From positions 1 to 18,508 of the IMG/VR virus record IMGVR_UViG_2660238511_000004: DNA of 18,508 nucleotides; one strand, 5' to 3'. The position numbers and the translations under genes are program-made. Below are positions 1-17,630 of the stretch, piece by piece (position 1 is the first letter of the stretch; every line of letters starts with the position of its first letter). A model generated the notes under the pieces. The model made no database searches and was not told where the DNA came from. It saw only the letters and a program-made list of their open reading frames with translations. The stretch is from a virus. Its lineage: Duplodnaviria > Heunggongvirae > Uroviricota > Caudoviricetes.

Positions 1-64
1 CAGAAGTGATCACCACCCTGTCTACAGAGCCAGATGTGAAGGATGATGAGTAAAATTATCGCTA

Positions 65-502
65 TCATCGAAGGCATTGCGTCCTGATGTACTCCTGCAG
101 GTAGTTAACCTGCGCGGTTATCCTGTCGATTCCACTTCGGAGACGGTAATAATTGAGTTCAGCATCTGCTGTAAGTCTTGGGCTTTCTCCATCGCCCATG
201 CTGCTGGCTCCGGTCGTTGACTTTGCACAGGTGGCGGCGACTTGCAGGCGTTTACGACCAGCAGAAACATCAGCACGGAGACTTTCGATAGTCGCGTTAG
301 CATCAGCAAGCTCCTTTGTGTATCTGGCGTCAAGTTCTGCTACATCATGTTGCCGCTTCTGCATATCAGCGATGATGGATGTGGCTTTATCGCGCTGCTC
401 TTTGTAGGCGATTGCATTATCACGGTAATGATTAACAGCCCATGACAGGCAGACGATGATGCAAATAACCAGAGCGGAGATAATTGCGGTGACTCTGCTC
501 AT
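65..502 (-). CDS. Rz: Spanin inner-membrane subunit Rz (i-spanin)
   Basis: 145 aa product with an N-terminal TM segment, near-collinear with recalled lambda Rz ([31 protein letters not shown]...). Sits immediately downstream of R in the S-R-Rz order. Confidence 0.92.
118..303 (-). CDS. Rz1: Spanin outer-membrane lipoprotein subunit Rz1 (o-spanin), embedded in Rz in the +1 frame
   Basis: ORF 118..333 lies wholly inside Rz in another frame. Internal Met gives [20 protein letters not shown], a lipobox-type signal (LVVNAC), followed by a Pro-rich segment as in lambda Rz1. The start at 303 is inferred. Confidence 0.78.
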
Positions 503-975
503 ACATCAATCTCTCTGACCGTTCCGCCTGCTTCTTTAAATTTTGTAATCAGGCTGTCAGCCTTATGCTCGAACTGACCATAACCAGCGCCCGGCAGTGA
601 AGCCCAGATATTGCTGCAACGGTCAATTGCCTGACGAATATCACCGCGATCAATCATCGGTAAAGCGCCACGTTCTTTAATCTGTTGCAGTGCCACGGCG
701 TCCTGGCTTTTCGGAGAGAAGTCTTTCAGGCCAAGCTGCTTACGATAGGCATCCCACCAACGGGAAAGAAGCTGGTAACGTCCGGCTGCTGTTGATTCGA
801 GTTTTGGGTTTAGCGTGACAAGTTTGCGAGGGTGATCGGAGTAATCAGTGAATAGCTCTCCGCCAACAATGACGTCATAACCATGATTTCTGGTTTTCTG
901 ACGTCCGTTATCAGTCCCCTCTGACCACGCCAGCATATCGAGGAACGCCTTACGTTGATTATTGATTTCCACCAT
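499..975 (-). CDS. R: Endolysin R (lytic transglycosylase)
   Basis: 158 aa product essentially identical to recalled lambda R ([39 protein letters not shown]...). 4-bp overlap with Rz. Confidence 0.95.
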
Positions 976-1282
976 CTTCTACTCCGGCTTTTTTAGCAGC
1001 GAAGCGTTTGATAAGCGAACCAATCGAGTCAGTACCGATGTAGCCGATGAACACGCTCGTTATATAAGCGAGATTGCTACTTAGTCCGGCGAAGTCGAGA
1101 AGGTCACGAATGAACCAGGCGATAATGGCGCACATCGTTGCGTCGATTACTGTTTTTGTAAACGCACCGCCATTATATCTGCCGCGAAGGTACGCCATTG
1201 CAAACGCAAGGATTGCCCCGATGCCTTGTTCCTTTGCCGCGAGAATGGCGGCTAACAGGTCATGTTTTTCTGGCATCTTCAT
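959..1282 (-). CDS. S: Holin S (class I holin with MKM dual-start motif)
   Basis: 107 aa product near-identical to recalled lambda S107 ([34 protein letters not shown]...). Met1 and Met3 give the S107/S105 dual start. Upstream sdi-like hairpin CCCCTTATTGGGGG is present on the coding strand. Confidence 0.95.
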
Positions 1283-1524
1283 GTCTTACCCCCAATAAGG
1301 GGATTTGCTCTATTTAATTAGGAATAAGGTCGATTACTGATAGAACAAATCCAGGCTACTGTGTTTAGTAATCAGATTTGTTCGTGACCGATATGCACGG
1401 GCAAAGCGGCAGGAGGTTGTTAGCGCAACCTCATGCCACCCGCTTTCACGAAGGTCATGTGTAGAAGTCCGCAGCATAACTATCACTGATGAATCTAGGA
1501 TAGCCAGTGGCTACGGCTCAGTTA

Positions 1525-1600
1525 TGGTGCTGGTTAACGGACTTGAACCGCTACCCATTCGCTTACAAGGCGACTGCTCTACCATTGGAGCTAAACCAGC
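1525..1600 (-). tRNA. tRNA-Thr (anticodon UGU), phage-encoded
   Basis: Hand-folded cloverleaf on the minus strand: acceptor stem GCTGGTT/AACCAGC (7 bp), D arm GCTC/GAGC, anticodon loop CUUGUAA (U33, anticodon UGU, A37), T arm AGCGG-TTCAAGT-CCGTT, discriminator A, encoded CCA. One G-A mismatch at the base of the anticodon stem. Confidence 0.6.
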
Positions 1601-1605
1601 ATGTT

Positions 1606-1680
1606 TGGCGGGACAGCGTGGACTCGAACCACGATAAGAAGGTTAACAGCCTTCCGTAATGACCTTTATACGACTGACCC
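1606..1680 (-). tRNA. tRNA-Asn-like (anticodon GUU), possibly degenerate
   Basis: Minus-strand cloverleaf: anticodon stem GAAGG/CCTTC, loop CUGUUAA (anticodon GUU), T arm CGTGG-TTCGAGT-CCACG, encoded CCA. One mismatch in the acceptor stem (4-68 T-T) and one in the D stem, so function is uncertain. Confidence 0.5.
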
Positions 1681-1725
1681 AAATAAAAAAGCCACCGTTG
1701 CAACTTAAGAGTCACTAACGGCAGC
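1681..1725 (-). terminator. Candidate tR'-like intrinsic terminator or attenuator immediately downstream of Q
   Basis: Minus strand reads GCUGCCGUU-(17 nt loop)-AACGGUGGC followed by UUUUUUAUUU. The 9-bp stem includes two G-U pairs and the loop is long, so strength is uncertain. Confidence 0.3.
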
Positions 1726-1742
1726 TTACCTTCTAATTATGG

Positions 1743-2261
1743 CTAAATGGCTAATTGCATGTCAAGGCTTTTAACAGCAACATGCTTAACTTTCTCAACA
1801 CGTTTACGCATTTTGAAAGCATTTTGCATTGGCTGGTATAAAACAAATAATGACGCTTTCAGGATGTCGTCAATTTCGTTTCTACAGGTTGCCAGTGAAG
1901 GTTTTCTCCATCCCTCGCCACCACGTCCACACATCTTGCGTGGCTTTGCAGTCGCGTGATAGTAGGATGCAATTGCTCGCTTAGATGAACCATGAGCGTA
2001 GTAGCTGAGGAGGATGCCAAAGGCTTTCTTGTCAATGTACATGACGGAATCGACGACCTGAGAAATCAACATTCCATCATCATCATTGCACATTGGCCTT
2101 GTCATAACTCTTCCCGGCTCTACGCTCTCCATGAACTTCGCTATTACGCTGCTCATGCGCTTTTCCAGACGACCTGAATAAACCCATGCGCCCCACAGTT
2201 CAAGCCAGCCATTCAGCCACTCATGCTGTTCTTTGGTGAGGTTTAGTTCTCTTATGCCCAC
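1743..2261 (-). CDS. Late-gene antiterminator Q-like protein (not lambda Q type)
   Basis: 172 aa ORF in the Q position, between the nin genes and the tRNA/lysis cassette. Sequence does not resemble lambda Q; it recalls the Phage_antitermQ family ([12 protein letters not shown] motif near the N-terminus; C-x(10)-C pair). Assignment rests on position plus family recollection. Confidence 0.55.
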
Positions 2262-2923
2262 GCGCCTTCTCCCTGTACCTGAATCAATGTGAGATTTCCG
2301 CAGAACACTGCGCCGGTATCGATATACATCTGGTTGGAAAACTTGAGTGGTTTCACTGCTGGCGTATGACCAAAGATGAACGTGTCCGCGCCTTTGATTT
2401 CTTTCACGATCCCGTCTTGTGAGTTGCTGATTCGTTCGCGGTTCCAGATTACCTGCTGATGATCAACTGGCTTTCCAAACTCGTATTTATCACAAGGATA
2501 ATCGGCGTGGCAGATGACATATTTTTTACCTTTGCTCACCAGTTCGATGATTAACGGAAGTTCACCTGCTTTATGGGCAAGAGCTTTAGCCAGAATTTCT
2601 TTGTCGTAATCGAGATTAAAGAACCAGCCACCGCCATTAAGCAGCCAGTGATTGACGTTTCCACGCTCTGATAAGCCATCAATCATCATTTGCTCATGGT
2701 TTCCACGTACAGCTCTGAACCAGGGGAATGTGATTAATTCCAGGCATTCGACGTTCTCTGTACCGCGATCAACCAAATCGCCAACCGAGATAAGCAGGTC
2801 TTTTTTGGTGTCGAATCCTATCGTCTCCAGTTTTTTCATCAGGTTCGTGTAGCATCCGTGCAGATCGCCAACTACCCAAATATTTCGGTATTTGCTGCCA
2901 TCAATTCTTTCGTAATAGCGCAT
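2252..2923 (-). CDS. ninI: Serine/threonine protein phosphatase (lambda NinI / ORF221-like)
   Basis: Near-identical to recalled lambda phosphatase from [25 protein letters not shown], with GDLVDRG and GNHE metallophosphatase motifs. Start set at the internal Met (2923), which has GGAG about 9 nt upstream; the track ORF extends to 2998. Confidence 0.9.
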
Positions 2924-3107
2924 CTCTTTCACTCCATCCGCGATGAACCATGAGAACGTCGTTGACGATGGCGTGCATTTTCCCGTCTTTATCATCAACG
3001 TATTTTCTGACCGTACCGCGACTACATTTCAGTCTGCGTGCTACTTCTGTCTGGTTTCCGTATGCTTCAACGAGCATGTCTGGAATGGTTTTTACTGAGA
3101 ACGTCAT
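2901..3107 (-). CDS. ninH: NinH
   Basis: 68 aa product matching recalled lambda NinH ([37 protein letters not shown]...), a Fis-like HTH protein. Confidence 0.9.
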
Positions 3108-3715
3108 GCGGCCTCACTTCTGCTGTTTCGCAGGTCTTTGAGTTTCTGCTGATACTCCGCCTTGATGGCCCTGCACTCTTCGACAGTCCAGCGATGGCGG
3201 TTATGGTTTGATTCGATTTCGTCTACTGCTTCCTGCCCGATGCGGCTAATCAGTTCGACGCGATACGGAACGAGATTTCCGCTTTTGTGCTGGTTGCACA
3301 CCACGCATTGCTTGTGAATATTGCGTTCATCAAATCGGAGTTGAGGCGCCGCAGCAGTTGTCCGGTAATGCCCGGCATCCCACTGAGCAGACGTGAGCGT
3401 TCCGCACGAGATACATGGTAAGTCGCGGTCTCTTTCTCTGATGAAGGCGTTTACGGCTTGTTGGGCTTGTTTAATCCAGTAACTGCGGGGCTTTAAGGCG
3501 AGTTTTCGAATCTTAAGTTTATCTTTCTGTTTCTGCTCCTCTCGTCGTCGTTTCTTCTCTGCTGCCTTTTCCGCTTTTTCGCGTTCTTTGCTTCGTCGTT
3601 CGAGTGCTATCTTGGTTCCACACTCTGGAGAGCACCACCACTGATTGGCGAATGCAGGGTGAAACCATTCCCGACATTCATCGTTTTTACATCGTCTTCG
3701 CGCTGGTTTAGCCAT
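3104..3715 (-). CDS. ninG: NinG (Rap recombination endonuclease)
   Basis: 203 aa product matching recalled lambda NinG/Rap ([33 protein letters not shown]...). 4-bp overlap with ninH. Confidence 0.92.
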
Positions 3716-3878
3716 CGTCTTCTTCCTCGTGCATCGAGCTATTCGGATCGCTCATCAGTTCTGCGCAGCAGTGCTCACACACGTGAACTTCCAGCACATG
3801 CAGCTTCTGACCGCAGTTAGCACACGTTAAAGCTCGCTCGACGCTTTCTTGTTCGTAACTTCGATTTTGGTCAATCAC
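3708..3878 (-). CDS. ninF: NinF
   Basis: Hand-translated 56 aa ORF, absent from the track because under 60 aa: (V)[58 protein letters not shown] start with AAGG upstream; overlaps ninE stop and ninG start. Confidence 0.72.
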
Positions 3879-4057
3879 CTTGTTTTCCTCGCACGTTCTC
3901 TAAGCCACCGGATATCCCACAGGTGAGCCGTGTAATTGAAGGTTTTTACGTCAGATTCTTTTGGGATTGGCTTGCGTTTATTTCTGGAGCGTTTCGTTGG
4001 AAGGTATTTGCAGTTTTCGCAGATGATGTCGGTGATACTTCGTCGCTGTCGTCTCAT
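3875..4057 (-). CDS. ninE: NinE
   Basis: Internal Met of track ORF 3875..4147 gives the 60 aa product [60 protein letters not shown], matching recalled lambda NinE. Confidence 0.85.
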
Positions 4058-4581
4058 GCCGCCCTCCTGACGCCCTGCCCGATCGCCATCAATGCCGCTT
4101 TGGATACGGTAGTAAACATCCGTCGAGGACTGATGAACGGTCGCCAAATCAGCAGCATGGAGCCTTTGCTGTTTCCCTTCTTCTCCAACCCTGTCGATGG
4201 TTCGATAAAATTAATCCGTCCATCAGTGATAATGCGAACTTCGTCGACACTCTCCAGAGCCTTGCTGAACCATCCGACTGATATATCCTCTGGCACAAGC
4301 ATAACTACCGTCTGTCGCTGTTGTATGCACTGCTCAGCGGCTTTTTCCACCCACGGCCTGATATTGCTGTACGGTGGGTTATTCCAGATTGCACCGTGGC
4401 TTACCCACTCAGAATTGAGCGCGTCGTCGGCCTAAGTTAGCCAGTGAGCACACAGAGCATTTTTGTCGCTCGCTGCCGAATCCAGCCAGAATCCAAACTC
4501 AATATCCAGTGCATCAAAAAGCCAAAGCGGCGTTTGCCAGCAGTCCTTGTCGTGTGCTGGCGTATTTGATTTGATAGTCAT
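4054..4581 (-). pseudogene. Phage Dam-type DNA N6-adenine methyltransferase interrupted by an in-frame amber (TAG) codon at 4432-4434
   Basis: Track ORFs 4432..4641 (N-terminal part) and 4054..4350 (C-terminal part) are in the same frame, separated only by TAG. The joined product reads ...DKNALCAHWLT*ADDALNSEWVSHGAIWNNPPYSNIRPWVEKA... and contains the NPPY catalytic motif. Likely start is the ATG at 4581, forming an ATGA overlap with the ninB stop. Confidence 0.7.
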
Positions 4582-5018
4582 GCAGCCCGATCTCCCCATC
4601 TCGCTTTCCACTCCAGAGCCAGTCTCGCTTCGTCTGACCACTTAACGCCACGCTCTGTACCGAATGCCTGTATAAGCTCTAATAGCTCCGCAAATTCGCT
4701 TACACGCATCCTGCTGGTTGACTGGCCTATTACCACAAAGCCATTCCCGGCAAGGTTAGGAACAACGTCCTGCTGCTTTAATGCTGCTGTAAAAACGCAC
4801 TTCCAGCTTTCTGCATCCAGCCAGCGACCATGCCATTCAACCTGACGAGAGACGTCACCAAGGCAAGCCCAAAGCTTTCGATTCTGGTCTAAGCTGCGGT
4901 TGCGTTCCTGAATGGTTACTACGATTGGTTTGATTGGGTCTGGAAGAATTTGCTGGATAGCTTGAATGGCGTTCTGCTGATGAATTGGGCTTCTTAGTTC
5001 AAACGTTCGTTTCCTCAT
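4578..5018 (-). CDS. ninB: NinB (recombination protein, ORF146-like)
   Basis: 146 aa product closely matching recalled lambda NinB (…HQQNAIQAIQQILPDPIKPIVVTIQERNRSLDQNRKLWACLGDVSRQVEWHGRW…). GAAGGTGAGC lies ahead of the ATG. Confidence 0.93.
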   Translation of the reverse strand: MRKRTFELRSPIHQQNAIQAIQQILPDPIKPIVVTIQERNRSLDQNRKLWACLGDVSRQVEWHGRWLDAESWKCVFTAALKQQDVVPNLAGNGFVVIGQSTSRMRVSEFAELLELIQAFGTERGVKWSDEARLALEWKARWGDRAA

Positions 5019-5253
5019 GGCTCACCTTCTGCACGCATGGATTAATTAACGCCAAAATAGCTTCTGGTTTCTCAATAACATCGAACCGCTCACCACTTGC
5101 CATTCTTACAATCGTAAATCCGGCATCAAATAGGGTTTCGATGTTGTCAGAATTAACGTACAAGGGCTCATATGCACTTCTGGTGCTTTCTATCGCGCTT
5201 GTGCTTGGTGGCTGATAGATGCTGCATCGCATGGTTAATTTGATAAATGACAT
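4999..5253 (-). CDS. Hypothetical protein (84 aa)
   Basis: ORF with AAGGAG 8 nt upstream of the ATG; tightly packed (4-bp gap to the upstream gene, 20-bp overlap with ninB). No recognisable motifs. Confidence 0.5.
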   Translation of the reverse strand: MSFIKLTMRCSIYQPPSTSAIESTRSAYEPLYVNSDNIETLFDAGFTIVRMASGERFDVIEKPEAILALINPCVQKVSHEETNV

Positions 5254-5257
5254 ATAC

Positions 5258-5566
5258 TCACTCCTTCACTTTGATTCCAGCGGCGCGGATAGCCTCTACA
5301 TCGCTTTCGTATTGCGATTCTGCACCTGAGTCATAGCCAATGTGATAATCACCGGGAAGTGGGCCTTTCTTTGGCTTTTGCAGCTCAATCTCGATAGCTG
5401 CTCGCGATGCCTGCCATAAAGTCCACCACTCATTTAAGGAGTGACGAATATCCATGCTTGAAAATGCGAAGTACCTATCACCATTTCTTGCCTCGGTTAT
5501 CATCTCGAATGGTAATCTCAATTTTTTGGCAACGTATTCCTCAAACTGCTTTCTTGATTCGCCCAT
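5258..5566 (-). CDS. Hypothetical protein (102 aa)
   Basis: ORF with GGGGA upstream of the start; same orientation and packing as its neighbours. No recognisable catalytic motif. Confidence 0.5.
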   Translation of the reverse strand: MGESRKQFEEYVAKKLRLPFEMITEARNGDRYFAFSSMDIRHSLNEWWTLWQASRAAIEIELQKPKKGPLPGDYHIGYDSGAESQYESDVEAIRAAGIKVKE

Positions 5567-5577
5567 ATCAATCCCCG

Positions 5578-5778
5578 TTATGACAGGTTAATTTTCACCC
5601 AACCCTTCCCACGCACATTTGCAACAAGCCCTTTCTTTCTCAGGTATTGCATACGGCGATCGATGGTTTCGATATACATTCCATTGCTCCGCCATTTAAG
5701 CCAGATATCAAAAACAGGTGTTGGTCTTTCACTCAGCATTGAAAGAATGTTTTGATCTAATTTTTCGTACTTGCTCAC
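5578..5778 (-). CDS. Hypothetical small protein (66 aa), basic, possibly DNA-binding
   Basis: ORF overlapping the upstream gene by 4 bp (translational coupling). Basic C-terminal half (RRMQYLRKKGLVANVRGKGW) looks winged-helix-like. Confidence 0.45.
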   Translation of the reverse strand: MSKYEKLDQNILSMLSERPTPVFDIWLKWRSNGMYIETIDRRMQYLRKKGLVANVRGKGWVKINLS

Positions 5779-6101
5779 AAATACCCTCTCTCACTTAATC
5801 GCGCCCACGCTTCGTTAAACTCTTCTCTAGTTGCGCCGGATTTTCTTTCTTCGAACATCATGCATTCGCTGATGTCTCCCCATGACTTTGGTCGCTTTTC
5901 AGCGAACAGATCATCCCATTCGAATACCCAGCGGCCTGATTTTCGGTAGTGGTAAATGGTCAGCCATGTTGTGCTGTTCGCTGGATACCCATAGAGAACT
6001 TCGACTTTTTGATCACGGTCTTTATGCTTTTTCAGCAGGATAAAGCCAGCAACCAGCGAAGCTCCGGCAAGAATGATGATTGGAATTTGCCAGTCAGCCA
6101 C
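5775..6101 (-). CDS. Hypothetical membrane-anchored protein (108 aa; one N-terminal TM helix)
   Basis: GTG start preceded by GGGAGAGGGAAG. N-terminal hydrophobic segment IPIIILAGASLVAGFILL followed by KKHKDRD (positive-inside). Directly downstream of the helicase terminator. Confidence 0.5.
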   Translation of the reverse strand: MADWQIPIIILAGASLVAGFILLKKHKDRDQKVEVLYGYPANSTTWLTIYHYRKSGRWVFEWDDLFAEKRPKSWGDISECMMFEERKSGATREEFNEAWARLSERGYL

Positions 6102-6111
6102 ACTTCCCTCT

Positions 6112-6147
6112 CCCCCAAATAAAAAGGCCTGCGATTACCAGCAGGCC
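6112..6147 (-). terminator. Rho-independent terminator downstream of the helicase gene
   Basis: Minus strand: GGCCUGC-(8 nt loop)-GCAGGCC, a perfect 7-bp GC-rich stem, followed by UUUUUAUUUGGGGG. Confidence 0.6.
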
Positions 6148-6176
6148 TGTTATTAGCTCAGTTATGTAGATGGTCA

Positions 6177-7613
6177 TCAGAATCCTCCTTTCTTCTTGGA
6201 CTGCGGTTCCTCGCGTTCACGGCGGCGCATTTCAGCAGACTGTTGGTCTGTGTCATAAATAGCGCCATTTGCCTGAATGCAATACACCGTGCCGGTATTG
6301 CCATGACGATTGAGACGAAGGATTAGTTCGGTTTCACCAGGTGGAACACTGTCATCAAAAGCACCTTCACGATGGATCCCCACCCAATAATCGCAATCCT
6401 GTTCAATCTGCCCTGTATCTCGTGAGTCACTTGGTAATGGGCGTTTATTGGTTCGGCTTTCCAGTGCGCGGTTAAGCTGTGTCAGAAGCACAACAACGCA
6501 ATCAAGCTCTTTGGCAAGGTTCTTCAGTCCTTTGGTGATCATGCCGTAAGCAAGGTCGTTGCGATCGGCCTTCTCAGCGGTCATTAGTGTCAGGTAATCG
6601 ACCAGAATCATGCCAACACATCCTTTTTCTCGCTTGATTCGACGGCTTTCGCTGACGATTTGAGCCAGAGATAATCCCGGCGTGTCGTCGATGTAAAGCA
6701 TGTCGATTTCACTCAAGCGATTAGCTGTTTCGATCGCCCTGTTGAAGTCACCATCGTAATCACCCTGATAGCCGTCATCAGCGTCATTTGTCGCCGGAAG
6801 GTAAAAAATATTCGGGTTAACACCTGACTTCTGTCCTACCAGTTTTTCCAGTATCTGGTCACCGGGCATTTCAAGGCTGAACATCAGAGCGGGCTTTTTC
6901 TCATGCACTGCGCAGTTGATTGCCATCTGGCTGTATAGCGTCGTTTTCCCCATCTTAGGGCGAGCGCCAATGACAAACAGAGAGCCTTTCACCAGACCTT
7001 TCGGTGACAGCATCCTGTCCAGCGATGGGATCCCTGTGCTCATTCCTCGTTGTTCGCCTGACGGGTCAAATCGCTTCTCAAGGTCGCTAACCCAGTCTTC
7101 CATGACCTCACCAAATGAGCGAAGGCCGCGACGCGATCCGGTTTTTGCATGGTCTGTCAGTTGCGTGAAAATCGACTGAATAGCTTCGTACTTCTGTGTT
7201 GCAGTCATTCCGTTGCGGGAATAGAGCAATTCCGTCGCTTCAGTCATGCGGTTGATGGCGTAGCGTTCCATTGCGGTTTCGCGAACCTGCATTGCATAAG
7301 CAACGATGTTTGCTGCGCTTGGCGTGTTCTTTGCGATCTCAGCGATATAAGCAAAACCGCCAACAGACGCCGTTAACGATTTACGCTCCAGTTCATCGAA
7401 AAGCGTCAGGCCATCTACTGGCTTTTGCTCACGGTGCATTCTGGTTATTTCTTCGAAAATGATTTTGTGTGGTCGGCTGTAAAATGAATCAGGCTTCAGC
7501 ATCGCCAGAACTTTCTGGACGCGCTCACTGCTGTCATCATCCAGAAGCAATCCACCAATCACCGCCTGCTCTGCCTCGATGCTATGGGGCGGCGCATAAA
7601 AATTATCGGTCAT
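6177..7613 (-). CDS. Replicative DNA helicase, DnaB family (P22 gene 12-like)
   Basis: DnaB-type N-terminal motif (HSIEAEQAVIGGLLLD), Walker A (GARPKMGKTT) and the overall DnaB architecture. Start set at the ATG with GAGGGTGAA upstream (7613); the track ORF begins 15 nt earlier at GTG. Overlaps the end of the O-like gene. Confidence 0.9.
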   Translation of the reverse strand: MTDNFYAPPHSIEAEQAVIGGLLLDDDSSERVQKVLAMLKPDSFYSRPHKIIFEEITRMHREQKPVDGLTLFDELERKSLTASVGGFAYIAEIAKNTPSAANIVAYAMQVRETAMERYAINRMTEATELLYSRNGMTATQKYEAIQSIFTQLTDHAKTGSRRGLRSFGEVMEDWVSDLEKRFDPSGEQRGMSTGIPSLDRMLSPKGLVKGSLFVIGARPKMGKTTLYSQMAINCAVHEKKPALMFSLEMPGDQILEKLVGQKSGVNPNIFYLPATNDADDGYQGDYDGDFNRAIETANRLSEIDMLYIDDTPGLSLAQIVSESRRIKREKGCVGMILVDYLTLMTAEKADRNDLAYGMITKGLKNLAKELDCVVVLLTQLNRALESRTNKRPLPSDSRDTGQIEQDCDYWVGIHREGAFDDSVPPGETELILRLNRHGNTGTVYCIQANGAIYDTDQQSAEMRRREREEPQSKKKGGF

Positions 7614-8430
7614 CGTGTTCACCCTCACGAACTTTCAGGTAGGTATTATCGTTAAGCAGGAAATCAAATCCCTTTTTGTGCCAGACGGTTCCGCGTTGAT
7701 GGTTTGGGCGCTCTTCGAACATCCATCGGCAATTTTCGCCAACGTAGCTCAAATAATTTCTCCAGTCCTGCATCGTGAACCCATGCCCGTCAAGCTGGCG
7801 GGTTATCACTCCGGCTTTGCGCCAGAACGTTCGGATCTGGTTTTTACGCTTGTCATTCAGTGCGCGGATTCTTGGCGCTTCAGGAAGGATTTCGTGGTAA
7901 GCATCGACAACATCCTGACAGCTAACGGAAGGTTTTTTCTTGTCAGACTTTTTGTCTGCTGTGGCACTCTCTAATACGTCAGTATTAGAGATATTATTTA
8001 TATTATTGTTTATGGACAACCGTTGGACAGCCGTTGGACAATCTCCGCTGAGAGCCGCGCCATTACTGGTGTTTGCGTTGGACAAACGTTGGACAACCGT
8101 TGGACAATTTTTTGCCTGAAAATCGTCATATTTAACGATTGTAAACAGGCTAAATTTCTTCCCCATCGAGCAAATATTAAGCATCCCTTTCGACTCAAAA
8201 GTCCGTAATAAGCTCCGAACTTTGTTGTCGGGGATGAATGTTTCTCTGACCAGAGACGGGCGTCCAGTTATCATCTGACCGCGATCAACAGTTATCGGAC
8301 CGATATCCGTATTGACGACAGTAGATTCGTGATTAGCCTTGAGGATTAAGTGAAGCCAAAGATGTACTGCCTGAGAGTCCTTATAGAGCCTGCTGTCCAT
8401 AAACTGGCGGTGTATAGAGACATACCCCAT
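7603..8430 (-). CDS. Replication initiator protein (lambda O / P22 gp18 analogue) containing the origin
   Basis: Lies between cII and the helicase and contains the iteron array and AT-rich tract in its linker (protein repeats CPTVVQRLSN, CPTAVQRLS, then INNNINNISN). Start set at Met22 (8430), which has AGGAGG 8 nt upstream; the track ORF starts at 8493. Confidence 0.8.
   Translation of the reverse strand: MGYVSIHRQFMDSRLYKDSQAVHLWLHLILKANHESTVVNTDIGPITVDRGQMITGRPSLVRETFIPDNKVRSLLRTFESKGMLNICSMGKKFSLFTIVKYDDFQAKNCPTVVQRLSNANTSNGAALSGDCPTAVQRLSINNNINNISNTDVLESATADKKSDKKKPSVSCQDVVDAYHEILPEAPRIRALNDKRKNQIRTFWRKAGVITRQLDGHGFTMQDWRNYLSYVGENCRWMFEERPNHQRGTVWHKKGFDFLLNDNTYLKVREGEHDDR
7983..8106. repeat. 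Phage replication origin: five direct iterons (GTTGGACA core) plus an adjacent AT-rich tract, inside the O-like gene
   Basis: GTTGGACA at 8022-8029, 8033-8040, 8077-8084, 8088-8095 and 8099-8106, with a partial copy at 8013-8019. AT-rich tract ATTAGAGATATTATTTATATTATTGTTTATGG at about 7985-8016. This is the lambda-like ori layout. Confidence 0.75.
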
Positions 8431-8479
8431 ACTGGATGCCTCCTGATATTGTACAGGGTTATGCCTGTAATCAGCTAAC

Positions 8480-8641
8480 TTAACGACGCCCATGTTTCAC
8501 TCCTGCTTTGGCTAGTCTGTAAACACCAACAAGGCGCTCTGCGAACGCCCTGTTATTTGCTGCGGCTACCACTAATCCCTCAGGTGAATCAGGGTGTCGA
8601 ATCTCTTCTTTTTCCTGGTATTTCTTACGACGTTTTGTCAT
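8480..8641 (-). CDS. Small basic hypothetical ORF (53 aa) between cII and the O-like gene
   Basis: Hand-translated MTKRRKKYQEKEEIRHPDSPEGLVVAAANNRAFAERLVGVYRLAKAGVKHGRR, with GGGAG about 6 nt upstream of the ATG. No recognisable family; could be a leader-region artefact. Confidence 0.25.
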   Translation of the reverse strand: MTKRRKKYQEKEEIRHPDSPEGLVVAAANNRAFAERLVGVYRLAKAGVKHGRR

Positions 8642-8675
8642 AATTACTCCCGTGGATTGATCCAGTCTTTCTACA

Positions 8676-8954
8676 TTAGGCCTCGAAGAATTCGCCGTTC
8701 TTCGGGGCTTTTTCTTTTGTCAGCATTCTGGCTACTTTCTTAGCCAGTTCCGCCAACTCCTCGTCTTCAACACCCCATTCAAGAACAGCCAGAAGCATTC
8801 CCATTTTTGGGATGAAGCTGTCTTTCCATCGCGAAATTTGCGATTCATTAACCCCTAACGCGTCGGCAACCTTTCGCTGACCACGTACAGCAATTCGATT
8901 CAGGATGTTGCTTGTAATTGCATTCGCTTTCTTGCGAGTACTTGTAAGTTGCAT
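8676..8954 (-). CDS. cII: Transcriptional activator cII
   Basis: Internal Met of track ORF 8676..9014 gives 92 aa MQLTSTRKKANAITSNILNRIAVRGQRKVADALGVNESQISRWK...MLLAVLEWGV..., which aligns with recalled lambda cII (SQISRWKRDWIPKFSMLLAVLEWGV). AAGGA lies 11 nt upstream. Position between cro/nutR and O is as expected. Confidence 0.85.
   Translation of the reverse strand: MQLTSTRKKANAITSNILNRIAVRGQRKVADALGVNESQISRWKDSFIPKMGMLLAVLEWGVEDEELAELAKKVARMLTKEKAPKNGEFFEA
8681..8720 (+). terminator. Intrinsic terminator on the strand antisense to the cII 3' end (oop-like antisense RNA terminator)
   Basis: Plus strand: CCUCGAAGAA-(UUCGCCG)-UUCUUCGGGG, a 10-bp stem with one G-U pair, followed by CUUUUUCUUUUGU. 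It lies inside the last cII codons on the opposite strand, the position of the lambda oop terminator, though the sequence differs from lambda oop. Confidence 0.6.
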
Positions 8955-9033
8955 ATGTAAGTATTTCCTTAGATAACAATTGATTGAATGTATGCAAATA
9001 AATGCATACACCATAGGTGTGGTTTAATTTGAT

Positions 9034-9065
9034 GCCCTTTTTCAGGGCTGGGATGTGTAAGAGCG
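9034..9065 (-). promoter_or_regulatory. nutR: nutR (boxA CGCTCTTACACA, boxB GCCCTGAAAAAGGGC)
   Basis: Minus strand between cro and cII reads CGCTCTTACACATCCCAGCCCTGAAAAAGGGCATCAAATTAAACCACACC..., the lambda nutR boxA/boxB, followed by the tR1-like region. Confidence 0.85.
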
Positions 9066-9073
9066 GGAATGTC

Positions 9074-10426
<1,353 letters not shown>

Positions 10427-10475
10427 TCCCCACCTCAATCTCGATAACCAAAAACAAACTATTTTTCATTTAAAA

Positions 10476-10543
10476 ACAATGGAGTTTGTTTTTCACGCCC
10501 CTTTTTACAATATTTCTTGTTTACAACATACAATCTTTCTTGT
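10476..10543. promoter_or_regulatory. 434-type left operator region (three ACAA-N6-TTGT operators) overlapping pL
   Basis: ACAATGGAGTTTGT (10476-10489), ACAATATTTCTTGT (10507-10520), ACAATCTTTCTTGT (10530-10543). Same consensus as the OR sites. Confidence 0.8.
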
Positions 10544-10548
10544 AATTT
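10520..10548 (+). promoter_or_regulatory. Candidate pL promoter (TTTACA -17- TAATTT)
   Basis: -35 TTTACA at 10520-10525, 17-bp spacer, -10 TAATTT at 10543-10548, overlapping the two N-proximal operators and oriented toward nutL and N. Confidence 0.5.
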
Positions 10549-10588
10549 TAAGCCATCAGCAGGACGCACTGACCACCATGAAGGTGAG

Positions 10589-10619
10589 GCTCTTAAAAAT
10601 TAAGCCCTGAAGAAGGGCA
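10589..10619 (+). promoter_or_regulatory. nutL: nutL (boxA GCTCTTAAAAA, boxB GCCCTGAAGAAGGGC)
   Basis: Plus strand reads ...GGTGAGGCTCTTAAAAATTAAGCCCTGAAGAAGGGCAGC..., the lambda nutL boxA/boxB, followed by a lambda-like N leader. Confidence 0.85.
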
Positions 10620-10886
10620 GCATTCAAAGCAGAAGGCTTTGGGGTGTGGTGAAGCCAGCTAGTCACTGGCAAGTGCTTACCTACTGTTGAGCGGTGAAGC
10701 GCTCCCAACGCTAGCAATAGCGTGGACGAGATGGGGAGCCGCGGGCGATAAGGCCGCCATAACGCGCACGTTGTCGCATGGAAAAATCGCTGGGGTGCCG
10801 GTTATACCCCTCCGAATGAGACTCAACAAGCTGGAGCTAGACTACCAGCCACCACACCACCAAAGCTAACTGACAGGAGAATCCAG

Positions 10887-11219
10887 ATGGATGCACAAAC
10901 ACGCCGCCGCGAACGTCGCGCAGAGAAACAGGCTCAATGGAAAGCAGCAAATCCCCTGTTAGTTGGGGTAAGCGCAAAACCAGTTAACCGCCCTATTCTC
11001 TCGCTGAATCGCAAACCGAAATCACGAGTAGAAAGCGCACTGAATCCGATAGACCTTACGGTGCTGGCTGAATACCACGAACAGATTGAAAGCAACCTGC
11101 AGCGTATTGAGCGCAAGAATCAGCGCACATGGTACAGCAAGCCACGCTGTGAAATGGGTGTGACTTGCTCAGGCCGCCAGAAGCAACGCGGAAAATCAAT
11201 TCCAGCTTATTACGATTGA
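10887..11219 (+). CDS. N: Antitermination protein N (lambda type)
   Basis: 110 aa product MDAQTRRRERRAEKQAQWKAANPLLVGVSAKPVNRPILSLNRKPKSRVESALNPIDLTVLAEYH..., near-identical to recalled lambda N including the Arg-rich boxB-binding N-terminus. GGAGAATCCAG precedes the ATG. Confidence 0.95.
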   Translation: MDAQTRRRERRAEKQAQWKAANPLLVGVSAKPVNRPILSLNRKPKSRVESALNPIDLTVLAEYHEQIESNLQRIERKNQRTWYSKPRCEMGVTCSGRQKQRGKSIPAYYD

Positions 11220-11227
11220 GGTGAGCC

Positions 11228-11365
11228 ATGCTCAAGAAAGTCAAACGCCGACTTTACAAAGAAGGTAGATATTCATGCCAGTTGCCAAAATGCGACACAA
11301 CAAAATGGAGTGTCGATGATTGGTGTAACTGGATAGATAGATACGGAACTTGGTGGGATAAATAA
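11228..11365 (+). CDS. Possible small Cys-rich ORF (45 aa) downstream of N
   Basis: Hand-translated MLKKVKRRLYKEGRYSCQLPKCDTTKWSVDDWCNWIDRYGTWWDK. Weak RBS; occupies the region where lambda has tL1 and sieB. Speculative. Confidence 0.2.
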   Translation: MLKKVKRRLYKEGRYSCQLPKCDTTKWSVDDWCNWIDRYGTWWDK

Positions 11366-11419
11366 CAGGTAACTTAAGCGTATTTACTTTCGCAGCAAAC
11401 CACTTATTTGAGGTGAGAT

Positions 11420-11506
11420 ATGGAAGAAGAATTTGAAGAGTTCGAAGAGCATCCTCAGGATGTGATGGAACAATACCAGGACTACCCTTATGACTACGAC
11501 TATTGA
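11420..11506 (+). CDS. orf28-like small acidic ORF (28 aa)
   Basis: Hand-translated MEEEFEEFEEHPQDVMEQYQDYPYDYDY with GAGGTGAGAT upstream. It is 87 nt long and overlaps ral by 17 bp, which is the geometry recalled for lambda orf28/ral. Confidence 0.55.
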   Translation: MEEEFEEFEEHPQDVMEQYQDYPYDYDY

Positions 11507-11690
11507 TAAAAATCAATGGTGTGGACAATTCAAGCGATGCAATGGATGCAAGCTGCAATCGGAATGCATGGTTAAGCCTGAAGAAATGTTTCCTGTAATG
11601 GAAGATGGGAAATGTGTCGATAAATGGGCAATACGAACGACGGCAATGATTGCCAGAGAACTTGGTAAACAGAATAACAAGGCTGCCTGA
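11490..11690 (+). CDS. ral: Restriction alleviation protein Ral
   Basis: 66 aa product MTTTIDKNQWCGQFKRCNGCKLQSECMVKPEEMFPVMEDGKCVDKWAIRTTAMIARELGKQNNKAA, matching recalled lambda Ral. Confidence 0.9.
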   Translation: MTTTIDKNQWCGQFKRCNGCKLQSECMVKPEEMFPVMEDGKCVDKWAIRTTAMIARELGKQNNKAA

Positions 11691-11748
11691 TGGTGGCCTT
11701 TATTTTTGTCCGTAAATAATTTCATGCTTATTACAATCAAGGTGATAT

Positions 11749-12171
11749 ATGGAAGAACAAGCAAACAAGATTCTCGTAGAACTACTGCAAAAAGCCAGTA
11801 ATGGAATAGACGCGGCTGTTTCATTCAGCCAGGCACAGATTCCTGATGTTGTTCATCAGTTGCTAATATGGAGTTTTGTCCATAGCGCACTTTTCCAAGT
11901 GGCTGGATTGTTGCTTTTAATTGCAGCAATTAAACTTCCTAGTTTTGCAAGAACGGCAAGAAATAATGGCGAGAGATGGACGTCTTTCGATGGACGTCCA
12001 AATGATGGACATTTTATATCTTCGGTTTATTACGATATATGCACTGTATTTGTTCCTATATTTGGCTCAATTATGGGTGTTTTAATTATTGCCTTCAATT
12101 TCGAATGGTTGAAGATTTGGATTGCGCCTAAGTTATTCCTAATTGAATATGCGGCATCATTGGTTAAGTAA
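11749..12171 (+). CDS. Hypothetical integral membrane protein (140 aa, 2-3 predicted TM helices) in the pL operon
   Basis: AAGGTGA lies 5 nt upstream of the ATG. Hydrophobic segments LLIWSFVHSALFQVAGLLLLIAAI and VFVPIFGSIMGVLIIAFNF. Followed by a terminator. No recognisable family. Confidence 0.55.
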   Translation: MEEQANKILVELLQKASNGIDAAVSFSQAQIPDVVHQLLIWSFVHSALFQVAGLLLLIAAIKLPSFARTARNNGERWTSFDGRPNDGHFISSVYYDICTVFVPIFGSIMGVLIIAFNFEWLKIWIAPKLFLIEYAASLVK

Positions 12172-12320
12172 TTTCAGGCCGCATAGTCTGCCTTTATTTT
12201 TAGCATAAACAAGAGAATAAACACTGCACTGTGTATTCATTCCAACGAGTGAATACACGGAGCAATGTCGCTCGTAACTAAACAGGAGCCGACTTGTTCT
12301 GATTATTGGAAATCTTCTTT

Positions 12321-12347
12321 GCCCTCCAGTGTGAGGGCAATTTTTTT
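12321..12347 (+). terminator. Rho-independent terminator (tL2-like) ahead of the recombination module
   Basis: GCCCUC-(CAGUGU)-GAGGGC, a perfect 6-bp stem, followed by AAUUUUUUU. The next gene's RBS GGAGG and ATG follow immediately at 12360. Confidence 0.65.
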
Positions 12348-12359
12348 GACGGAGGATAT

Positions 12360-13328
12360 ATGAGTGAAGTAACAGATTTAGTTGTTATTGAAAAAGCAAA
12401 TGCAATGACTGTATTTCAGTCTGCCGACCAGATTGAAGAAATTCTCCAAAAGGTTGAACGTGAAGTTATGTCCTTTGTGCCTGATATCACAACGGCAAAG
12501 GGCAGAAAGGAGATCGCTTCTCTGGCGTATAAAGTTGCGCAGACGAAAACATATCTCGATGGTCTTGGCAAAGACCTTGTTGCTGAACTGAAGGAAATTC
12601 CAAAGCTAATTGATGCCAACCGCAAGACGGTGCGCGATCGCCTTGATGAACTGAAAGCCAAGGCGCGCCAGCCTCTTACTGATTATGAGGAGGAACAGGC
12701 ACGGATTAAAGCCGAAGAAGAAGCTAAGGCAGCAGCTGAAGCTCTCGCAAAGCAAATTGAGTCTGACCATGAAATAGCGATTTTGATGGATCGCGAGTTT
12801 GACCGCCAAAGAGAAGAGGCAAGACTCAAAGCGGAGCAGGAAAAGCGAGAGCATGAAGAACGCTTAAAAAGAGAAGCTGAAGAGAAAGCCAGAGCAGAAG
12901 CCGAAGCAAAGGCAAAAGCCGAAATTGAAGCAGCAGCAAGACGAGAAGCAGAGGCTAAGGCCGCAGCGGAACGTGCAGAGCGTGAACGCATTGAAGCCGA
13001 GCAACGAGCACAGCGCGAAGCAAAAGAGGCAGCAGAACGAGCTGAAAGAGAAAAGCAAGCGGCAATTGAAGCAGAACGCCGAAAAGCACAGGAGGAGGCT
13101 GAACGAATCCGGCGCGAGGCTGAAGCAAAAGAGCAAGCCAGAATAGCAGAAGAAAAAAGAATCAAGGACGAAGAAGAGCGCAGAGCAAAGGATAAAGCTC
13201 ACCGGAAAGAAGTAAATAACAAAATACTTGCTGACCTTATCAAGGTTGGCGCATCAGAAGATGTTGCTAAAAATATCATAACAGCCATCGTAAAAGGCGA
13301 AGTATTCGCAACAAAAATAACCTACTAA
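12360..13328 (+). CDS. Coiled-coil phage protein (322 aa) with a long Glu/Ala/Lys/Arg-rich central helix; possibly Gp157/DUF1351-like and recombination-associated
   Basis: Start set at the ATG with GGAGG upstream; the track's earlier start (12306) would put the terminator hairpin inside the ORF. The central 160 aa or so are degenerate EAKA/ERAE heptad-like repeats. Family assignment is from memory only. Confidence 0.65.
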   Translation: MSEVTDLVVIEKANAMTVFQSADQIEEILQKVEREVMSFVPDITTAKGRKEIASLAYKVAQTKTYLDGLGKDLVAELKEIPKLIDANRKTVRDRLDELKAKARQPLTDYEEEQARIKAEEEAKAAAEALAKQIESDHEIAILMDREFDRQREEARLKAEQEKREHEERLKREAEEKARAEAEAKAKAEIEAAARREAEAKAAAERAERERIEAEQRAQREAKEAAERAEREKQAAIEAERRKAQEEAERIRREAEAKEQARIAEEKRIKDEEERRAKDKAHRKEVNNKILADLIKVGASEDVAKNIITAIVKGEVFATKITY

Positions 13329-13352
13329 TAAAACCAACATAAGGAACCACCC

Positions 13353-13484
13353 ATGATTTACGCAATCGCGGGAGGCGCTCGCATGGGTGCCTTCCAACTA
13401 AATGAATCTTTACTTGAACGAATCACCCGTAAATTACGTGACGGATGGAAAAGAGTTGAGGTCTTATTATGCGCAATGAAATAG
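13353..13484 (+). CDS. cIII: cIII-like protease inhibitor (43 aa)
   Basis: Hand-translated MIYAIAGGARMGAFQLNESLLERITRKLRDGWKRVEVLLCAMK. The core ESLLERITRKLRDGWKR matches recalled lambda cIII. AAGGAA lies 6 nt upstream. Confidence 0.75.
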   Translation: MIYAIAGGARMGAFQLNESLLERITRKLRDGWKRVEVLLCAMK

Positions 13485-13621
13485 CCATCAATCACCAGAT
13501 GCTTCGTGCTGCACAGAACAAAGCAGTAATAGCCCGATTTATTGGTGATTCCAAAATGTGGCTTGAAGCAAATAAAGCGATGAAATCAGCTATCAACCTT
13601 CCGTGGTATCGCAGGAAATGA
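13469..13621 (+). CDS. Kil-like small protein (50 aa), tentative
   Basis: Hand-translated MRNEIAINHQMLRAAQNKAVIARFIGDSKMWLEANKAMKSAINLPWYRRK. Overlaps the cIII 3' end as kil does in lambda; the IARFIGDSKM segment recalls lambda Kil. Low certainty. Confidence 0.4.
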   Translation: MRNEIAINHQMLRAAQNKAVIARFIGDSKMWLEANKAMKSAINLPWYRRK

Positions 13622-13776
13622 GTTTTACAGATAACTGGTCAGACGAAGAATTCATTCGTCAGATGAAAGAATTAATCGGTAACGAAGGAGATATTCATGT
13701 CACTTGCAACCACAGTGAAGGAGAGCAAGTTACAGAGACGCATGTACACGCAGAAAGCTCTCTGGTATCGCCATAA
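13618..13776 (+). CDS. Small hypothetical ORF (52 aa), alternative 1 of two overlapping candidates
   Basis: ATGA overlap with the preceding ORF stop, with AGGA upstream. Product MSFTDNWSDEEFIRQMKELIGNEGDIHVTCNHSEGEQVTETHVHAESSLVSP. Overlaps the 13697..13867 candidate in another frame, so at most one is likely real. Confidence 0.25.
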   Translation: MSFTDNWSDEEFIRQMKELIGNEGDIHVTCNHSEGEQVTETHVHAESSLVSP

Positions 13777-13867
13777 TGGCGACCGCGAAGGAATGCGGGT
13801 ATGCCTTAATTTGTCTCGAGTCGAAGTATTAAATCAGCGTTATTTCCTTGGGCCGTGTCCATTCTGA
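13697..13867 (+). CDS. Small hypothetical ORF (56 aa), alternative 2 of two overlapping candidates
   Basis: GGAG 8 nt upstream. Product MSLATTVKESKLQRRMYTQKALWYRHNGDREGMRVCLNLSRVEVLNQRYFLGPCPF. Ends 8 nt before the Rad52-like gene. Confidence 0.25.
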   Translation: MSLATTVKESKLQRRMYTQKALWYRHNGDREGMRVCLNLSRVEVLNQRYFLGPCPF

Positions 13868-13875
13868 GGTGAATT

Positions 13876-14583
13876 ATGGATTTGAATAAATTCGATGAGC
13901 CATTCAGCCCTGAAGATATCGAATGGCGAATACAGCAAAGCGGTAAAACACGCGATGGCAAAGTGTGGGCTATGGTGCTGGCTTATGTCACGAACCGGGC
14001 AATCATGAAACGCCTGGACGATGTTTGCGGCAAAGCAGGATGGCGCAATGAATACCGCGATATTCCCAACAACGGAGGCGTTGAATGCGGCATATCAATC
14101 AGGATTGATTCCGAATGGGTAACCAAATGGGATGCTGCTGAAAACACGCAGGTAGAAGCCGTAAAAGGTGGTCGTTCCGGTGCAATGAAGCGCGCTGCCG
14201 TTCAGTGGGGAATCGGTCGGTATCTGTATAACCTTGAGGAAGGTTTCGCACAAACATCTCTCGATAAAAAGCAGGGATGGCACAGGGCAAAACTCAAGGA
14301 TGGAACAGGATTTTACTGGCTCCCTCCATCGCTGCCGGGATGGGCAATCCCAGCATCAGATAACAAACCATCACCAGAAAATACCAACCAGAAATCTCCA
14401 TCGGTTGACTGCGAGCAAATCCTGAAAGACTTCAGCGATTATGCGTCAACAGAAACTGACAAGAAAAAACTCATCGAGCGTTATCAGCGTGACTGGCAAT
14501 TAATGGCTGGCAACGAGGAGGCGCAGGCTAAATGCGTTCAGGTAATGAACATCAGAGTTAACGAGCTAAAACAGGCGGCATAA
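13876..14583 (+). CDS. Rad52/Sak-family single-strand annealing protein
   Basis: 235 aa product whose N-terminal 150 aa fit the recalled Rad52/Rad22 fold signature (…GGVECGISIR…WVTKWDAAENTQVEAVKGGRSGAMKRAAVQWGIGRYLYNL…). GAGGTG RBS. Sits immediately upstream of ssb, the typical SSAP-SSB pairing. Confidence 0.75.
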   Translation: MDLNKFDEPFSPEDIEWRIQQSGKTRDGKVWAMVLAYVTNRAIMKRLDDVCGKAGWRNEYRDIPNNGGVECGISIRIDSEWVTKWDAAENTQVEAVKGGRSGAMKRAAVQWGIGRYLYNLEEGFAQTSLDKKQGWHRAKLKDGTGFYWLPPSLPGWAIPASDNKPSPENTNQKSPSVDCEQILKDFSDYASTETDKKKLIERYQRDWQLMAGNEEAQAKCVQVMNIRVNELKQAA

Positions 14584-15057
14584 ATGGCAAGCAGAGGCGT
14601 AAATAAGGTGATCATTATTGGTCGCCTTGGGCATGATCCAGAAATCAGATATTCACCATCAGGAACGGCATTTGCAAACCTTACAGTTGCTACGTCAGAA
14701 CAATGGCGTGATAAGCAAACTGGAGAGCAAAAGGAGCAGACGGAGTGGCACCGCGTGGTAATGAGCGGGAAACTGGCAGAAATTGCCAGCGAATATCTGC
14801 GAAAAGGCTCTGAGGTTTATCTTGAAGGCAAATTGCGGACAAGAAAATGGCAGGATCAAAGCGGACAGGATAGGTTCACTACCGAAGTTATCGTAGGCGT
14901 TGGTGGAACCATGCAAATGCTTGGTGGCAAGCAAGGAGGCAATGAACAGTCTTCACCTCAGCGAAATAACGGCCAGCAACAAAGACAGCAATCTCAGCAG
15001 CATGGGAATCACAGCGAACCACCTATGAACTTCGACGATTCGGATATTCCGTTCTAG
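14584..15057 (+). CDS. ssb: Single-stranded DNA-binding protein (SSB)
   Basis: 157 aa product with an OB-fold N-terminus ([48 protein letters not shown]…), a Gly/Gln-rich linker and the acidic C-terminal tail DDSDIPF. Confidence 0.9.
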
Positions 15058-15066
15058 GAGCTGAAT

Positions 15067-15546
15067 ATGAAAATCTGCTCAAGATGCCATCAACAGAAGG
15101 AAGAAAGGGACTTTCAAATCAGAAGAGCATCCAGAGATGGATTAACTGCCGCTTGCCGGGCTTGCCTGGCTGAATACGACAAAGAACGCGCTGGATTGCC
15201 ACATCGAGTATCAGCAAGGAGAGAATATCAATCATCGGAACGCGGAAGAGAACGGTGTAACGCAGCCAAAAAGCGGTTCATTCAGAGCAACCCATGGAAA
15301 AGAAAAGCCCACATCATTGTGGGTAATTTTTTGCGCGACGGTAAGCTAATCCGACCACCACAATGTGAGTGCTGCGGATCAGAATGTAAACCACAGGCGC
15401 ACCACTGCGACTACAGCAAACCAACCGATGTGATGTGGCTCTGCAAGTCATGTCATGTCGAGTGGCACAAACATAACAAACCTATCTACCCAGACGAGGA
15501 ACCAGTAACTCTCCCCTTCCCTCGTCACGCTATTCACGCAATTTAA
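15067..15546 (+). CDS. HNH-like zinc-binding nuclease-family protein (159 aa)
   Basis: AGGAG 7 nt upstream. N-terminal CxxC...CxxC pair (CSRCH, CRAC) and a C-terminal HNH-like segment CECCGSE…AHHCDYSKP…WLCKSCHVEWH. Confidence 0.55.
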   Translation: MKICSRCHQQKEERDFQIRRASRDGLTAACRACLAEYDKERAGLPHRVSARREYQSSERGRERCNAAKKRFIQSNPWKRKAHIIVGNFLRDGKLIRPPQCECCGSECKPQAHHCDYSKPTDVMWLCKSCHVEWHKHNKPIYPDEEPVTLPFPRHAIHAI

Positions 15547-15559
15547 TCAGGAGAAAATC

Positions 15560-15856
15560 ATGCCAGCGCCTCAGTATGGTGCGGATGACCCGCGCCGCTG
15601 TTCCGGCAATTCCGTATCGGAGGTGCTGGATAAATTCAGAAAAAACTACGATCGAATAATGTCTCTACAACAGGAAACGAAAGAGGAAAAGGAATTTCGC
15701 CACTGTATATGGCTTGCAGAGAAAGAAGAACGAGAGCGAATTTACCAGACATCAATCCGACCATTCCGCAAAGCCACATATACCCACTTCCCTGAATATA
15801 TCGACCCGCGCCTGCGTAATTACCGCTCACGCTATGGCGCTATCAGTAATGACTGA
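15560..15856 (+). CDS. Hypothetical protein (98 aa)
   Basis: AGGAG 7 nt upstream of the ATG; tightly packed in the operon. No recognisable family. Confidence 0.5.
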   Translation: MPAPQYGADDPRRCSGNSVSEVLDKFRKNYDRIMSLQQETKEEKEFRHCIWLAEKEERERIYQTSIRPFRKATYTHFPEYIDPRLRNYRSRYGAISND

Positions 15857-15866
15857 GGAATTAACA

Positions 15867-16157
15867 ATGAAAACAATGAAGCTAAACATCGACCTCGGAA
15901 AATACGTTATTACCGGAACCAAACACGATCTGATTCTTAGCGAAAGAGGAATTATCAAAGAAGGCGAGAATGCAGGGAAAGAAACACTAAGCCGTATCGG
16001 TTATTACAGCAAGTTTGAGCATCTGGTTAAAGAGTTATGCAACCGTGAAATTCTGTTATCTCAGGCACGGACGCTACAGGATATTCAGCAGCATATCGAA
16101 GCTTTAGGTATGTCACTTAGCATGGCTATTGACCAGTTCGTGGAGAGTAAATCATGA
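15867..16157 (+). CDS. Hypothetical protein (96 aa)
   Basis: Start set at the internal ATG ([17 protein letters not shown]…) with GAGGAA upstream, which avoids overlapping the previous gene; the track ORF starts earlier at TTG (15714). Confidence 0.5.
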
Positions 16158-16617: not shown

Positions 16618-16618
16618 C

Positions 16619-17598: not shown

Positions 17599-17630
17599 CC
17601 TGCAACTTGACGTCAAAGGTGAATAACAAT

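Follow-up and report, generated by a model that had tools for sequence, protein, structure and literature searches.

The interrupted dam gene and its product

The window, by which we mean the whole 18,508-nucleotide stretch of DNA that was analysed, carries on its minus strand the gene order ninB, dam pseudogene, ninE, ninF, ninG, and ninH, which is that of a lambdoid nin region (Table 1). When the minus strand was translated in a single frame from 4641 to 4054, exactly one internal stop was encountered, and the ORFs at 4432..4641 and 4054..4350 were both found to lie in the dam frame. Codons are numbered here from the homologue-supported ATG at 4581, which makes the internal stop codon 50, and the gene so delimited (4054-4581) coincides exactly with the CDS of 528 nt that is annotated for intact E. 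coli homologues. Reading of the sequence from codon 50 to the NPPY motif revealed no ATG, GTG, or TTG in frame. The GTG at codon 78 is the first restart available and comes after NPPY; therefore, an active enzyme cannot be made by restarting there.

Table 1. Features of the dam locus and its neighbors, in window coordinates
Feature	Position	Strand	Remarks
dam-type N6-adenine methyltransferase pseudogene	4054..4581	-	175 codons including the internal TAG; ATG 4581..4579, TGA 4056..4054
Amber codon TAG (codon 50)	4434..4432	-	Gene nt 148 G-to-T (window 4434); ancestral GAG (Glu)
49-residue N-terminal fragment	4435..4581	-	Sole product expected of normal translation; contains beta-1, lacks the catalytic motif
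NPPY catalytic motif IV (residues 68-71)	4380..4369	-	Intact, 3' of the TAG
Codon 100, ATA (Ile)	4282..4284	-	G300A at window 4282; ATG (Met) in 85/85 close homologues
First in-frame restart after the TAG: GTG, codon 78 (98 aa)	4054..4350	-	Starts 3' of NPPY
ninB (Sf6 gene 50), upstream of dam	4578..5018	-	PF05772, 181.8 bits; TGA overlaps the dam ATG as ATGA
ninE (Sf6 gene 52), downstream of dam	3875..4057	-	PF05322, 145.9 bits; ATG overlaps the dam TGA as ATGA
AGGAGG Shine-Dalgarno of ninE	4068..4063	-	Read from the sequence
Antisense 170-aa shadow ORF, not a gene	3923..4435	+	No Pfam match; TAA stop 4433-4435

Two features of the interval bear on how it is read and annotated. Since ninE has an AGGAGG of its own, it need not rely on translation of dam. 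A polar effect of the dam stop on ninE was considered and set aside on the strength of this Shine-Dalgarno and against the background that nin transcripts of lambdoid phages are N-antiterminated. On the opposite strand, the TAA that ends the 170-aa ORF arises from the same base change as the amber codon, and this ORF is an annotation artefact. Automated gene callers mis-annotate the interval: the public gene calls of this contig list the 49-aa fragment and the antisense 170-aa ORF, the latter replacing the C-terminal half of dam.

The reading frames on the two sides of the stop were compared with the Pfam Dam profile, PF05869. The half before the stop matched profile positions 1-47 (E = 1e-13), and the half after it matched positions 50-167 (E = 2e-44). 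Because the halves are collinear on one profile and share a frame, they are not a chance juxtaposition. The joined product matched positions 1-167 of the 169 in the profile with a score of 217.5 bits (cutoff, 28.1) and the NCBIfam equivalog TIGR01712, "phage N-6-adenine-methyltransferase," with a score of 263 bits (cutoff, 97.05). The initial annotation had described one Dam-type gene split by a single in-frame TAG at 4432-4434, and both the one-frame translation and the collinear profile match show this description to be correct to the base. Its further statement that the joined product is full length, with NPPY intact after the stop, is borne out as well, and the possibility that the halves come from unrelated proteins was tested with the profile and did not hold. 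All 85 close homologues have an uninterrupted reading frame, which the window locus, with a TAG at codon 50, does not. The locus is a pseudogene derived from the phage N-6-adenine-methyltransferase family and not a functional member of it.

The catalytic motif that lies beyond the stop is strongly conserved. NPPY is invariant in a 61-sequence family alignment, and in a set of 101 family sequences N68 is invariant while P69, P70, and Y71 are each found in 100 of the 101. An AlphaFold model of an intact homologue that is 98% identical (P0001; 61-sequence alignment) gave a pLDDT of 90.1 and a pTM of 0.87. In this model, beta-1 comprises residues 31-36 and beta-2 comprises residues 46-48, with Glu50 immediately after it, and a strand at residues 64-68 leads into NPPY. 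A Foldseek search of the PDB with the model returned CAPAM as the best match (6IRY; E = 7e-5; TMq, 0.58), and the next matches were E. coli Dam, METTL4, and CamA, which are N6-adenosine or N6-adenine methyltransferases. The model and these structural matches place the intact protein in the AdoMet-dependent class I methyltransferase fold. The class I fold and an (N/D)PP(Y/F) motif after the fourth strand are features shared with the host Dam (E. coli Dam, PDB 4RTL) and other N6-adenine methyltransferases. In contrast to host Dam, the phage family is far smaller (175 residues), and a sequence search of the PDB detected no meaningful match between it and any solved chain. The best structural matches of the phage Dam model are the catalytic domains of cap-specific adenosine methyltransferases, with a TM of about 0.6.

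Relation of the window to Shigella phage Sf6

Positions 1-18390 of the window are 100.0% identical to Shigella phage Sf6 (AF547987/NC_005344), and the window is the whole of draft contig AZPF01000059.1 of assembly GCA_000566005.1, which carries the Sf6 prophage. Both AF547987 and NC_005344 pass from gene 50 (ninB) to gene 52 (ninE) with no CDS listed in the interval, and the number 51 is skipped. The Sf6 sequence that would be "gene 51" (about 31912-32439 of the record) occupies the same place as the window gene, between ninB and ninE, and is identical to it in sequence, with the TAG and M100I included. Of 175 phage records matched by a 61-mer around the TAG, only the two of Sf6 contain it exactly, and in these two it falls under "no annotated feature." Dover et al. 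(PMC5630979) cite Casjens et al. 2004 on a nin gene that a premature nonsense codon has inactivated. Because of the numbering gap, and because the window contains no other interrupted nin ORF, we identify the gene referred to by Casjens et al. with this dam gene. The defect was thus already known, and the feature is an ordinary nonsense pseudogene of a dispensable accessory gene.

The window nevertheless differs from the Sf6 record at several sites. The IS911 in ninG and its 3-bp GTT duplication are absent from the window, which has a clean empty site at the position of insertion (3615-3617) and an intact ninG of 203 codons (3104-3715). The window ninG is the pre-insertion or precisely excised state of Sf6. 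The gene for the cI-type repressor (Sf6 gene 39) is also intact in the window (210 codons; 9393-10025, plus strand), whereas that of the Sf6 record has a 1-bp deletion (at about 9782 of the window) and is frameshifted after about residue 130. The Sf6 records have no CDS for gene 39, an observation that would fit the sequenced stock being a repressor mutant. Two SNPs, at window positions 7427 and 8448, lie in the genes for the helicase (gene 44) and the replication initiator (gene 43), and a further single-base difference is found at 18388, near the attP end. Identity with Sf6 stops at 18390, beside the attP core, and from about 18427 to the contig end there is an IS3-family element with about 93% identity to E. 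coli copies of the IS1203-like type. An insertion sequence at the contig end, beside the attachment region, suggests an integrated or truncated prophage. The window is an independent Sf6-type sequence, most likely an integrated or a remnant prophage.

Origin and distribution of the amber codon

Codons 50 and 100 were compared across 85 close homologues, made up of 5 intact E. coli genes and 80 IMG/VR loci and representing 58 distinct alleles. All are 528 nt long and uninterrupted, and in all 85 codon 50 is GAG and codon 100 is ATG. The 5 E. coli genes are annotated "phage N-6-adenine-methyltransferase," are located between NinB and NinE, and align with the window gene without gaps. An alignment of this kind had been proposed in the initial annotation as a way to identify the ancestral codon, and it returns GAG (Glu) in every close homologue. 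Compared with the nearest intact alleles, the window gene has two changed bases only: G148T, which converts Glu50 to amber, and G300A, which gives Met100Ile. Judged from this comparison, the lesion is a single G-to-T transversion.

Conservation at the two positions was also determined in a set of 101 full-length sequences of the family (58-99% identity). Glu occupies position 50 in 93 of them (about 92%), Leu in 3, and Gln in 1. Position 100 is variable in the same set, with Thr in 36, Met in 33, and Ile in 15, and substitution of isoleucine there is probably harmless. The initial annotation had noted no second lesion. This remains true of disabling changes, since the stop is the only one, but not of private changes in general, since Met100Ile is a second one at a position that varies within the family. 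Both private changes alter the protein, and there are zero silent private changes. Two non-silent changes are the pattern expected of a gene freed from constraint and are too few for statistics.

The same allele was sought elsewhere. A look-up of one truncated product, the 49-aa fragment, in a collection very rich in E. coli and Shigella assemblies showed the TAG to be present in three more public assemblies (L089, L090, and L091). In the first of these, L089 (SRR30970149), the TAG lies in the Sf6 context between identical flanks, and codon 100 is still ATG. This indicates that the stop came first and that M100I came later. The window itself has the TAG and an intact cI and lacks IS911, which indicates that the stop is also older than the IS911 insertion and the cI frameshift found in the Sf6 stock that was sequenced. 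In L090, the prophage context is a different one, and the TAG allele is one base from an intact allele. In L091, the allele with the TAG shows 10 further differences from the window, of which those at nt 142 and nt 178 are closest to the stop. Either the identical mutation must have arisen independently, or a conversion tract of less than about 36 nt was involved. In total, at least two allelic backgrounds carry G148T, which is present in three prophage contexts, namely Sf6, a DLP12-like remnant, and another lambdoid prophage. We regard its recurrence, in an unquantified reading, as an effect of very deep sampling that reflects either repeated mutation or short-patch exchange. Little credence is given to codon 50 being a mutational hotspot or to a leaky amber, supplying a trickle of phage Dam, being favored over a full-strength or dead gene. 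G148T turns CTAAcTGAG into the short perfect palindrome CTAAcTTAG. A quasi-palindrome hotspot was assessed by eye and rejected; the arms are only 4 bp around a 1-nt center and are too weak to support the argument.

Six of the 10 places returned by the product look-up were rejected as TAG carriers, as these are contigs that end at nt 147-149 of intact GAG alleles. Public records include N-terminal "partial" fragments at all lengths from 36 aa up to 55 aa, and these are contig-end artefacts. Searches with an exact 26-mer and a degenerate 23-mer did not find the TAG allele in IMG/VR, GTDB species representatives, or JGI metagenomes. Likewise, it was not found in 5,426 complete E. coli genomes searched with the 61-mer and two 33-mer seeds; 867 of these genomes match the 61-mer, at best at 60 of 61 positions. 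No product identical to the 98-aa C-terminal ORF of the window, with Ile100, is on record.

Other E. coli prophages contain decayed copies of dam. In these, the same gene, in the same nin-region setting as in the window, has been inactivated independently by other lesions. The copy in L105 has a W47amber mutation, and those in L104, L106, and L107 have an additional A, causing a frameshift, in the A5 run at nt 117-121. The copy in L098 has a 2-nt deletion at nt 148-149 and a further 1-nt deletion. In L099-L103, 5' deletions extending up to nt 201 or 211 have joined what remains of the gene, its distal part, to int/xis or cro regions. The variety of these lesions indicates that inactivation of dam is common and is not tied to codon 50.

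Consequences of the interruption and ancestral function

We conclude, with a probability of about 90%, that the locus is a nonsense pseudogene derived from the dam gene in the nin region of Shigella phage Sf6. In its ancestral form, the gene encoded a 175-residue orphan N6-adenine DNA methyltransferase. The G-to-T change at nt 148 made Glu50 an amber codon, with the result that translation from the ninB-overlapping ATG ends after 49 residues, before NPPY. Since the fragment ends before NPPY and the next start is 3' of it, no active enzyme would be expected, and enzyme activity appears to have been lost at this locus. A recent nonsense pseudogene was one of two possibilities raised in the initial annotation, and it is the simplest reading. 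The loss was probably tolerated because the gene is accessory, because the host supplies Dam, and because the whole nin region is dispensable for Sf6 growth. Shigella has its own Dam. PMC5630979 describes the whole nin region as deletable from Sf6 with a gain in laboratory fitness. Given that gain, loss of dam alone would be cheap, and we infer that it was neutral.

The other possibility raised initially was that the gene is expressed only in amber-suppressor hosts. This belongs to a wider alternative in which the amber codon is read through, by a suppressor tRNA or by near-cognate readthrough, to supply small amounts of active Dam. In favor of this alternative, the frame has a single stop and is otherwise intact, NPPY included, and the TAG allele is present in several prophages. 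However, we consider this alternative very unlikely. ARAGORN identified only tRNA-Thr (UGU) and tRNA-Asn (GUU) in the window and no suppressor tRNA. A stop at codon 50 is found in 0 of the 85 close homologues and 0 of the 101 family members, and the TAG allele, not found in complete E. coli genomes, IMG/VR, GTDB representatives, or JGI metagenomes, is limited to a few draft or SRA assemblies. Since the stop is absent from the relatives, it is not a conserved recoding signal.

The nature of the interrupted codon also argues against readthrough. Glu50, which is about 92% conserved, ends beta-2, and Gln is found at this position in only 1 of the 101 homologues. In class I methyltransferases, the acidic residue that ends beta-2 is the canonical ligand of the AdoMet ribose, and the common amber suppressors insert Gln, Tyr, Ser, or Leu. 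A suppressed product with one of these at residue 50 might be impaired in function. In addition, the gene for the late antiterminator Q (Sf6 gene 59; 1743-2261, minus strand) naturally terminates in TAG, and Q would therefore be lengthened if suppression were efficient. The private missense change M100I arose after the stop, and the same gene has been destroyed outright in other prophages. Taken together, expression restricted to amber-suppressor hosts is unsupported: the window has no suppressor tRNA, relatives lack the TAG, and Glu50 is conserved. With a single disabling lesion and a gene that is otherwise intact save for M100I, the sequence taken alone does leave room for low-level natural readthrough of the UAG.

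Still less probable is an origin of the TAG in faulty sequencing or assembly, or in an amber mutation introduced into the Sf6 stock in the laboratory. Old Sanger genomes do sometimes contain false single-base stops, and laboratory work on P22-like phages commonly makes use of amber mutants. However, the Sf6 record shares this base with the window, which represents a distinct isolate or state as judged by IS911, cI, and the SNPs. The base is also found in SRA-derived assemblies, two unrelated prophage contexts included. Confirmation of the TAG had been called for initially, and its presence in the Sf6 genome, in this contig, and in other public assemblies shows that it is real. Finally, the two halves might be made separately and assemble into an active enzyme, and both do retain a strong family signal, but a split gene is hardly credible when the first in-frame start after the stop is the GTG at codon 78, 3' of NPPY, when the break falls inside the Rossmann core between beta-2 and the next strand of the model, and when no relative among the 85 close homologues and 101 family members is organized in this way.

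If the locus is a nonsense pseudogene, Sf6 and its prophage relatives would depend on the host Dam for GATC methylation. The initial annotation had suggested that the interruption bears on whether the prophage still protects its DNA against restriction. That bearing is weak, as Shigella is assumed to have its own Dam and as the gene has been lost in many prophages. The relevance of the lesion is limited to the methylation and restriction sensitivity of Sf6 DNA and to the use of Sf6 as a reference annotation. Two side results may be useful to curators, namely the sequence in which the decay events of the Sf6 lineage took place and the repeated loss of the methylase from lambdoid prophages.

The function of the ancestral enzyme can be approached through its intact relatives. 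The repaired product shares 99.4% identity with the protein annotated as Dam in phage VT2-Sakai (AP000422, 16989-17513), and we take that protein to be M.EcoVT2Dam. M.EcoVT2Dam of prophage VT2-Sa is described as "known to target GATC" (PMC6602927). This relationship suggests that the ancestral enzyme was specific for GATC. The VT2-Sakai Dam gene and the "phage N-6-adenine-methyltransferase" genes of Stx and lambdoid prophages (for example, WP_000153280) resemble the window gene in their length of 528 nt, their ninB-dam-ninE order, and their ATGA overlaps. They are uninterrupted, and their codons 50 and 100 are GAG and ATG, whereas those of the window gene are TAG and ATA. The virion DNA of P22 and lambda is under-methylated (PMC8022706). 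A Dam encoded by the phage presumably supplements GATC methylation whenever replication proceeds too fast for the host enzyme.

In several E. coli and Shigella proteins (P0054, P0055, P0057, P0061, and P0066), unrelated N-termini are fused to the methylase at exactly Val60/Ser61 (nt about 178). We take two of the fused N-termini to resemble lambda P and Ren and the start of P0057 to resemble the N-terminus of an HTH repressor. These fusions mark a recurrent deletion or mosaic junction inside the dam gene.

GATC is scarce in the window as a whole, with 41 sites compared with the 72 expected from base composition and the 91 expected from a Markov model. Its observed-to-expected ratio of 0.45 is tied with those of CTAG and GGCC as the lowest among 4-bp palindromes.
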